From the NCBI RefSeq assembly GCF_964204645.1, contig NC_134027.1:3318485-3382484 (forward strand): DNA of 64,000 nt, in the 5' to 3' direction. The number at the start of each line of letters is the position of its first letter. The first letter of the stretch is position 1. A program made the translations under genes and the position numbers. Below the pieces are notes generated by a model. The model saw only the letters and a list, made by a program, of their open reading frames with translations, ran no database searches and had not been told where the DNA came from. The DNA comes from Tubulanus polymorphus (lineage: Eukaryota; Animalia; Nemertea). Positions 1,852 through 5,150 of this stretch are shown piece by piece.

Positions 1852-4800
1852 ATGTCTGCTTTAAGCCCAGCTGATCCCAATTCATTTGCACTTCCTGAAC
1901 AATGGCAAACGAAGAAAATCCACCTTGATTTGGCAGTTGATTTTACCTCTGAAACACTCGATGGACGAGCGGATTTTGAAATAGAGAAGAATGCTGAGGA
2001 TTCACCCAATATATTGGTAAGTATCCAAGAAAATTGTTCTTAATTTCACTGAGACATTACTGAATATGGAGAAATTTTTTTCTTATTAAGACATTAGATA
2101 CACATGATTTGAGTATTGTGAAGGTGTCAGATAAGAGCTCTGGTGAACAACTAAAGTTTACTGTCGGTGATCCAGTTCTGTGTTTTGGTTCTAAACTTGA
2201 AATTCATCTACCAGCTGGTGTTGGTAAAAAGTAAGATCTTGTATGTTAGCTTATATCATATACAGATACGAAATATCAGGTGAGAAGGTTAATCATATAT
2301 TTAATGAACTGTTTTTAAGAATGACTGTGTCAGTGCATTACAAAACTTCTCCGCAAAGTACAGCCCTGCAGTGGTTAAAAGCTGAACAGACAGCTGGAAA
2401 AAAACACCCATATCTGTTCAGTCAATGTCAGGTAAATATATAGTATGCCTACATTGATCAGTGATAATGATAATGATCTAGTTAAAAGATGATAGAGTTT
2501 ATCATCAGTGATTGCTTATAATTTTAGGCAATACACGCTAGAAGTTTATTACCGTGCCAGGATACTCCAGCGATCAAAACATCCTACACAGCATCTGTAA
2601 GTGAGAAATCTATATCATGTCAAATAAATCGACTTGATAAAACTATAAGATATTTGAATCTAATATTGATACAGGTTATCATTACTTAGGCAATGTTTGT
2701 ATTTCAGATATCTGCACCAGTGGATTTAGAAGTGTTAATGAGCGCTGTCAAACAGTCAACTAGTCAAAATCCAACGGAAGCCACCCACAGAGTCCACACA
2801 TTTCATCAGAAAGTTCCAATTCCTAGCTATTTAATAGCAATTGTTGTTGGAGCAATTGAAAGCAGGTCTGATTTGATATATCACTACGAGAAAGTTATTT
2901 AAAGTTTCATCAGTATTTGTGTCAACATTTATAGAATTTTGACAGGAAAATTGGTCCACGATCTCACGTTTGGTCTGAAAAAGAAATGGTTGACAAAGCA
3001 GCTCATGAATTTGCCGAGGTGAAAAATTTTGTTACCATTCAAAAACAAAACATTATCAACATCTTAGTAAAACATGTGTTGGTACTCATTGGGGAACTAT
3101 TAACGGTTCTTTTGCAGACAGAGCAAATGATACAAACTGCTGAATCAATACTTGGTCCGTACGTTTGGGGAATCTATGACCTTTTAGTGTTACCACCTTC
3201 ATTCCCGTATGGTGGTATGGAGAATCCTTGCTTAACCTTTGTAACACCCACTTTATTGGTATGTATTTGGCGAACAATGATGTTTTTTTTTCTGATTCTG
3301 TTTTTTTTTGTTAACACAACTCAAATTGTTACGTAGGCTGGAGATCGTTCTTTGGCCGATGTTGTCGCTCATGAAATCACTCATAGCTGGACTGGCAACC
3401 TTGTCACCAACAAAACTTCTGAACATTTCTGGTGAGTATCGGTGAAATCATCAAACATTTCAATACCAGGGGTTCTTGAAATAATAATGGTAACAATACC
3501 ATTTTACACATACAGGCTCAATGAAGGACACACAGTGTTTGTTGAACGGAAAATAGCGGGGAAAATGCATAGCGAAAAACATCGGCATTTTTCTGCAGTC
3601 GAAGGCTGGAAAGATTTATCTGAATCTGTAAGTTTGAATTTTCTACATTATGCAGGTTAAATGAAGGGCACACTTCGTTTGTCGAGAGGAAGATAGTTGC
3701 ACGCTTGCGCGGAGAGCCACATCGACATCTGAGCCACATCGAAAGATGGAAGGATCTAATGGCTACAGTGAGATAGATGTGTTTTAGATACATTACCGGT
3801 TACCAGAATACATACCTTAGAAAATGTCCATCGTTTAAAAACTTTATGCCACGATTGAAAATTTCATTTTAGATTGAGCTGCAAGGGGCCACAAATCCAC
3901 TTACAAAACTTGTAACTGATTTGAAAGGTATCGATCCCGACGATGCTTTTTCATGTGTTCCATACGAGAAAGGGTCTTCACTGTTATTCTATCTTGAGCA
4001 AAAACTTGGTGGAGCCGGTTAGTATTATTACTTCTCTATAACAACTAAGGGTACATACAAAAACCTAACTGCAGTTGCGTATTTATGTCTATTTCCAGAG
4101 GTTTTCAATCCATTCCTTAGAGCGTACATTGAGAAGTTTAAGTATAAGAGTTTGGATACTGACGAATGGAAGGAATTCCTGTACAGTTTTTTCCATGATA
4201 AGGTGAAACTTGGATTTATTAAATGTGCTTTTCATGACTGTTAGCTAAATAATACAAAAGCTATAAAGTACCGATTCATTTTTAGGTGTCTGTGTTAGAT
4301 GAAGTAGATTGGAATGCATGGTTCTATCAACCAGGCATGCCTCCTGTAAAGCCAAAGTATGTACAGCCTCAAGCGTATTGAACTTTTCAAGAAGATTTTA
4401 TAAGTGACATTTTCTAATTTTTTTCAGTTTCGACACTTCTTTAGCAGATGTTTGCATTGCTTTATGTGAGAAGTGGAGCAAAGCTAGTGACAATGAATTA
4501 GACCAATTTGCCGCATCAGACATCGAAGGATTTTCATCTAACCAAATCAGAGAATTCCTGTCGTTGTTATTGTTAGAGGTAGAACTTGACAAGTAAAAAA
4601 ACTGATATGTTGAAATCCAACTGATGTTGATTTTTCACTTGAAAATCATCATTTTTCAGGCTCCGTTGTCAAGTATTAAAATGACGGCCTTGAAAGAATT
4701 ATACAAGATACATGAAATGCATAATTCGGAAATTAGATTCAGGTCTGTAATATCCTTATTATTTTTCATGCAAATGATATCTGTTTCTCATGTGCAGTCT

Positions 4801-5150
4801 ATGAAATAAATACCTAGTGTATAGAAATAAATTTCCATTTCAGGTGGCTTAGACTTGCGATAAAAGCCGAGCAAGATTTTGCCATTAAACCAGCATTAGA
4901 ATTTGTAACTGAACAGGGAAGAATGAAATTTACACGGCCATTATACAGGTTGGTATTAATCAGCGCTTTGTTATTACAGATTTCAGAAGTCAATTTAAAT
5001 ACTGGTAATTGATAGCAGTATTCGTTTTACTTCAGGGACTTGTTTAAGTGGAACGGATCTAAGAATGCAGCAGTTAAAAATTTCAACGAACATCGACCTT
5101 CCATGCACAATGTAACAGCTACGCTTATCGCTAAGGATTTACATCTTTAA
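1852..5150 (+). CDS. LTA4H: Leukotriene A4 hydrolase / M1 zinc aminopeptidase, multi-exon
   Basis: [12 protein letters not shown] start; [68 protein letters not shown] (HExxH), [26 protein letters not shown]; stop TAA at 5148-5150. Confidence 0.97.
3516..3627 (+). other. LTA4H: LTA4H alternative exon A (112 nt, zinc-ligand exon)
   Basis: cag acceptor 3513-3515, gtaagt donor at 3628; encodes (W)[37 protein letters not shown]. Confidence 0.9.
3656..3767 (+). other. LTA4H: LTA4H alternative exon B (112 nt, tandem duplicate of exon A)
   Basis: cag acceptor 3653-3655, gtgaga donor at 3768; same length and phase as exon A; open frame (W)[37 protein letters not shown]. Confidence 0.8.

Follow-up and report, generated by a model that had tools for sequence, protein, structure and literature searches.

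Tandem alternative exons in an LTA4H-like gene of the ribbon worm Tubulanus polymorphus exchange part of the active site and probably the peptides that fit its S1' pocket

The LTA4H-like gene of the ribbon worm Tubulanus polymorphus contains a tandem pair of exons, A and B, and our analysis confirmed that the pair is real, with each exon separately joined to both of its common neighbours. The gene splices in A or B, and we consider it likely, with a probability of roughly 60%, that the two proteins differ in the peptides that fit the prime-side S1' pocket. The window is the whole analysed stretch of 64,000 nt, and a sequence-only reading of it had pointed to two consecutive 112-nt exons of identical phase with intact AG/GT sites, 28 nt apart. 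The window sequence bears this out, as both copies are 112 nt long, open, in the same phase, preceded by AG and followed by GT (Table 1). The spacer between them was also said to be far shorter than the other introns, and it is: the introns on either side of the pair are 84 and 105 nt long, and the remaining 13 coding introns range from 71 to 111 nt. When the window was searched for the pattern of splice site plus exon start, exact matches occurred only twice, at A and at B, compared with none in 100 shuffles.

Table 1. Features of the LTA4H-like locus, in window positions; residue numbers follow human LTA4H.
Feature	Position	Strand	Basis or remark
LTA4H-like gene, coding span	1852..5150	+	612 aa; spliced model equals RefSeq X1/X2; joints; TIGR02411
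Coding exons 1-4	1852-2016, 2091-2230, 2320-2431, 2528-2596	+	
Coding exons 5-8	2708-2865, 2946-3018, 3118-3258, 3337-3431	+	
Constitutive exon upstream of A/B	3337..3431	+	carries HExxH (human H295, E296, H299)
Exon A, family-typical, deeper-covered copy (human L316-S352)	3516..3627	+	joints, RefSeq X1, codon table
Exon A codons	E318 3523-3525; V322 3535-3537; G345 3604-3606	+	
Spacer, 28 nt	3628..3655	+	holds A donor and B acceptor
Exon B, derived copy	3656..3767	+	joints in X3 and X4, RefSeq X2
Exon B codons	E318 (kept) 3663-3665; S at human 322 3675-3677; R345 3744-3746	+	H at 342
Constitutive exon downstream of A/B	3873..4017	+	D375 (kept), Y378 (F here), catalytic Y383
Coding exons after A or B	3873-4017, 4099-4202, 4286-4356, 4428-4578	+	
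Last coding exons	4660-4742, 4844-4948, 5036-5150	+	

Models spliced with A and with B matched RefSeq isoforms X1 and X2, respectively, residue for residue, and therefore both isoforms already exist in automatic annotation. A search with exon B returned a single protein among three candidates, the RefSeq LTA4H-like isoform X2 of T. polymorphus, whose cluster also holds X1. The two proteins differ at 15 positions, all inside the exon. Both score above the TIGR02411 cut-off of 761.7 (816 for isoform A, 801 for isoform B) and contain HExxH-x18-E, GxMEN, the catalytic Tyr and the LTA4H C-terminal domain, and three Pfam domains are recognised; comparison with human LTA4H gave a full-length match with an E value of about 3e-233. 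That alignment also confirmed the earlier assignment of the third zinc ligand, human E318, to the duplicated exon. Elsewhere in the window, positions 1373-1407, which end at a GT and match the loose end of an X4 contig, are a probable non-coding first exon joined near 1845. On the minus strand, positions 795-926 hold the first coding exon of a neighbouring gene that is oriented head-to-head and has an RRM_1 domain. Exon B, and not exon A, contains a perfect direct repeat of 12 nt at 3714-3742, the units 17 nt apart.

Splicing of both exons was seen in assembled contigs of two runs, X3 and X4, which come from two studies. All four joints named by the sequence-only reading for checking (3431>3516, 3431>3656, 3627>3873 and 3767>3873) were found, in agreement with its proposal that the exons are mutually exclusive. 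These runs consist of contigs rather than raw RNA, with 28-30 letters on the short side of the joints, and carry no RNA label on record; they were read as RNA from their GT..AG joints. Contig depth was 32.5 for A and 11.5 for B in X3, and 1232 for A and 468 for B in X4, giving exon B a share of roughly 26-28%, a rough figure derived from flat contig depths that are a poor measure of expression. Neither an A-B joint nor a joint skipping both exons occurred among the 15 joints listed in the contigs, which drop rare forms. Two further, unlisted joints probably correspond to the two expected constitutive introns absent from the joint table. Two other runs yielded unspliced contigs spanning both exons.

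That exon B might be drifting neutrally or decaying after its duplication, or be an artefact of assembly, is a possibility largely refuted already, and we give it a very small chance. B is the less deep form, and its two variants (3698 and 3716; none is listed in exon A) are too few for a test. Both are nevertheless synonymous, B is spliced in two studies, and tandem copies exist in many other animals. Raw DNA reads (run X7) and one 2778-nt contig (run X1) cover positions 3300-4030 continuously, without joints or indels, which speaks against an artefact of assembly. Two further runs, X8 and X9, gave no coverage of the stretch and so count neither for nor against. The two exons agree at 22 of 37 residues and at 66 of 112 nt, and 12 of the 22 identical residues are coded by different codons, the feature from which constraint on both copies had originally been argued. 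Synonymous differences are saturated (pS 0.84) while pN is 0.30 and the frame is open, so the duplication is old, and both copies have been kept open and look constrained.

As predicted from their length, including both exons or neither shifts the frame: the models computed with A joined to B stop at codon 358, and those skipping both stop at codon 318. Both stops lie >650 nt ahead of the last junction, and therefore nonsense-mediated decay would be expected. Two steps could thus keep the exons exclusive. The 28-nt spacer is probably too short for removal as an intron and would block splicing from A to B, and the frameshift with nonsense-mediated decay would remove double-inclusion and skipped products. 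Both have precedents in PMC5740500, where steric interference (<50 nt from donor to branch point) accounts for 9% of human clusters and frameshift is a listed exclusion mechanism for 60%. The whole A-B spacer falls below that <50-nt measure, and no YTRAY motif was found within the 28 nt.

The proposal that a sub-minimal intron enforces exclusion sterically is thus plausible in Tubulanus, but it does not extend to other animals, where spacers of 50, 57, 84, 263, 286, 327, 709 and 1013 nt show that steric exclusion is not the general rule. Every exon copy measured across animals, by comparison, is 112-127 nt long and of length 3n+1. In Mytilus coruscus one model runs on through the two copies, with eight residues between them, which would correspond to a spacer of 23 nt if this is plain read-through. 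Frameshift is the general safeguard and steric hindrance is local. Around the Tubulanus exons no convincing docker/selector RNA pairing was found, the candidates being short inverted repeats of 10-17 nt with 71-90% complementarity, for which there was no control and no related intron for comparison.

What the exchange does to the enzyme was considered from the position of the changed residues. Both isoforms keep every zinc ligand and all catalytic residues checked. In an AF2 model of isoform B, the exon covers two helices, 318-336, the zinc-ligand helix described in PMC2241622, and 338-359; mean pLDDT was 94.7 and 10-residue blocks over the exon scored 93-96, values that say little about activity. 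According to Table 2 of PMC7225938, the part of that paper used here, the S1' pocket of LTA4H includes Val322 and Glu325, and the S1' residues of related enzymes include Ser415 in APN, Ser420 in APA, Thr491 in IRAP and Lys397 in ERAP2. Motif spacing suggests that Val322 and these four residues occupy one position, four after the third zinc ligand. In the available text of PMC6222927, ERAP2 Lys397 reaches into the S1' cavity and could serve selectivity, and the portion of PMC9558494 consulted also places it in the S1' pocket. The change from Val to Ser at human 322, together with A342H and G345R in the next helix, would retune the peptide cavity. A cavity role for 342 and 345 is our own suggestion, as we found no paper documenting one; Glu348, in the same second helix, is placed in the active cavity by a docking paper (PMC3179160), which is weak evidence.

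Comparison of copies across species points to the same position. Among the 120 matches listed, residue 322 is V in 76, M in 22, R in 8, T in 7, K in 4, and S, C and N in one each. The Ser of Tubulanus B is unique among these matches, and Tubulanus B is therefore not of the K/R type. Copies differ at 322 in Tubulanus (V/S), Liolophura (T/K), Mercenaria and Ruditapes (M/K), Sinanodonta (V/R) and Elysia crispata (K/M), and in the metagenome loci L002 (V,V,K), L004, L015 and L037 (V,K), L053 (M,R) and L057 (M,K,E); some of these cases depend on one another, and in L026 just one copy is complete. Thus 322 usually differs between copies, with Val, Met or Thr in one and Lys or Arg in the other (Ser in Tubulanus B). 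All five Mytilus species, however, have V322 in both copies, their notable change being G345R as in Tubulanus B, so 322 is not the sole switched feature.

The Mytilus pairs, which differ at 345 (G/R) and not at 322, are among the observations that would fit another effect, in which the swap affects how the domains close, how stable the enzyme is, its turnover or its binding of partners, and not P1' preference, with B perhaps a slower or regulatory form. The changes are spread across both helices and include the bulky A342H and G345R, and isoform B scores 15 bits below isoform A on TIGR02411. This explanation is nonetheless unlikely, though it deserves more weight than the others considered here: most lineages that have pairs show a difference between copies at 322, and R or K at 345 occurs in 24 of the 120 matches listed, mostly as the only form seen of the gene, indicating a tolerated state.

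The sequence-only reading had instead favoured a shift in the balance between aminopeptidase and LTA4 epoxide hydrolase activity, and this did not hold up well. The residues that we take to be tied to LTA4 hydrolysis (E271, D375, position 378 and R563) all lie in shared exons, outside the swap, whereas the swapped residues include the S1' position. Both isoforms also carry changes at W311 (to S) and Y378 (to F), presumably pocket residues. The retention of D375, E271, R563 and K565 in both sequences would make lipid activity possible, and R563 and K565 stand in the same S1' list as V322 in the part of PMC7225938 cited above. Against this, PMC2483973 reports that, as of 2008, leukotrienes had yet to be identified in any invertebrate and that the C. 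elegans enzyme is an aminopeptidase only. Overall, we regard an epoxide hydrolase switch as improbable and a change in the peptides accepted by the S1' pocket as the better account. Since leukotrienes may be absent from invertebrates, the natural substrates of LTA4H there are unclear, and the isoform pairs show that selection on the invertebrate enzyme likely acts on peptide handling. Pairs differing only in the helix pair lining S1' are in effect natural matched mutants for prime-side specificity in a drug-target family.

The distribution of the swap was followed by comparing models within species, drawing on the 120 matches listed and 20 further clusters. Pairs differing only in this exon were present in 9 of 11 named mollusc species with at least two models (the chiton Liolophura, five Mytilus species, Ruditapes, Mercenaria and Sinanodonta), and Elysia crispata has both copies in tandem within one model. 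The swap was not seen in Pecten, Argopecten or one gastropod-like cluster, each with several models, nor in any of six non-lophotrochozoan groups with several models (Tachypleus, Periplaneta, Acanthaster, Tigriopus, Eurytemora and Branchiostoma). Lineus, Lingula and four annelids have one model each and are uninformative on this point. When the second-copy exon region of the chiton was used as a query, it found only its own cluster (one of eight candidates). Several Mytilus models (P0050/P0047 and others) also show an isoform with a 26-residue N-terminal extension, 643 versus 617 aa, that occurs with either exon form.

A search of metagenomes with the acceptor and the start of the exon yielded 70 loci, nine of which have two or three copies, or seven after merging duplicates. 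Both flanking exons are spanned by 34 loci, 3 multi-copy and 31 single-copy, and 14 of the 31 form one near-identical group. In a FastTree phylogeny of the flanking exons this group falls, with weak support, among lophotrochozoans together with multi-copy L015 and L053. Placement by summed tblastn score was discarded because a duplicated coral model distorted it. A search of the 70 loci for hidden diverged copies gave two weak partial matches only, in L013 and L060. Taken together, the exon pair is common but not universal in lophotrochozoans. Three tandem copies occur in L002 and in L057/L069; in the third copy of the latter, residue 322 of the human numbering is Glu, and His replaces the Asn that precedes the zinc-ligand Glu. 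Single models from Petrolisthes (P0067), Coptotermes (P0021), Rhopilema (P0112) and Candidula (P0048) carry Lys or Arg at 322, and each could be a paralogue or belong, as second copy, to a pair not otherwise seen.

The history of the duplication was examined with trees, profiles and topology tests. K/R-type copies of molluscs and metagenome loci form one group (SH-aLRT 91.7) that also takes in the second Elysia copy, and 17 of 18 training copies were assigned correctly by leave-one-out profiles, which points to one old duplication for the copies of this group. By the same profiles Tubulanus A is clearly of the typical type (-34 bits), and B is mixed, with +7 bits over residues 1-18 and -12 over residues 19-37. 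Over positions 1 and 2 of codons 1-18 (36 sites), B is identical to later copies at 26-31 sites and to copies of the first type at 25-28. Exon A agrees with first-type copies at 28-32 of these sites and with B at 26. The resemblance of B to later copies is suggestive only, as the single-copy loci L065 (30) and L064 (28) resemble B too. Tubulanus B is placed beside the one Lineus model (SH-aLRT 90.1), and the Mytilus copies fall next to each other (89.6); the exon tree of all 58 rows carries no supports. The typical copy comes first in Tubulanus and the metagenome loci; the models of Elysia and M. coruscus have the opposite order. Four hypotheses of origin were compared by AU tests on 31 of the 58 exon rows, using 5000 replicates, which is below the recommended number, and none was rejected: p-AU was 0.29 with Tubulanus B placed within the K/R group, 0.56 with B placed outside that group, 0.28 with Tubulanus A and B as sisters, and 0.61 with A, B and Lineus together.

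Other blocks of the gene also vary between models. Equal-length pairs in Tachypleus (P0122/P0010, residues 102-138) and Periplaneta (P0141/P0036, residues 104-140) each have one differing block, located near the pocket of the N-terminal domain and reading Gln-Cys-Gln versus His-x-Glu at about human 134-136; the protein models give it the look of another mutually exclusive exon, this one in arthropods. An Acanthaster pair (P0118/P0139, residues 246-286) differs only in the GxMEN block, and the second form, which has His for the Asn of the motif, may be altered or decaying. We tentatively put forward, as an idea rather less probable than its negation, that the two-copy exon is a single ancient lophotrochozoan cassette (ribbon worms, molluscs and probably annelids) switching S1' between apolar and polar or basic, and that active-site exon switches were gained three times in invertebrate LTA4H, in the S1' exon, in the Gln134/Gln136 block of horseshoe crab and cockroach, and in the GxMEN block of starfish. 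If true, the splicing of one gene would do what vertebrate M1 paralogues do, and the origin of mutually exclusive exons could be studied cleanly in a gene whose active-site exons were duplicated repeatedly across phyla.

The earlier suggestion of novelty survives in part. RefSeq lists both isoforms and the event is not confined to Tubulanus, so what stands is that the LTA4H exon swap is undescribed in the literature searched; subscription papers and most supplementary catalogues of mutually exclusive exons lay outside that scope. LTA4H is absent from the main text of PMC5740500 and PMC9013439, as far as these were available, and from one supplement of PMC8373072. The kind of event is well known. 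As in the tandem-duplicated mutually exclusive exons treated in the accessible parts of PMC5740500 and PMC8373072, the Tubulanus exons are homologous, of the same phase and included one at a time; the portion of bioRxiv 10.1101/292813 consulted gives pyruvate kinase PKM1/PKM2 as an example and places the variable residues of such exons near functional sites. Unlike the catalogued cases, the Tubulanus cassette carries a catalytic metal ligand and an S1' residue of an M1 peptidase. Like human LTA4H (MEROPS M01.004; PDB 1hs6, 3cho), the Tubulanus protein keeps the zinc ligands, GGMEN, Y383, R563 and K565; it departs from the human enzyme in its two alternative L316-S352 exons and, judging from the aligned residues, in S at 311 and F at 378. 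At the swapped S1' position it resembles the human M1 paralogues APN, APA, IRAP and ERAP2, which, in Table 2 of PMC7225938, have S, S, T and K at what is probably the equivalent site. Those enzymes are encoded by separate genes in another M1 branch, whereas Tubulanus makes the change by splicing within one gene.
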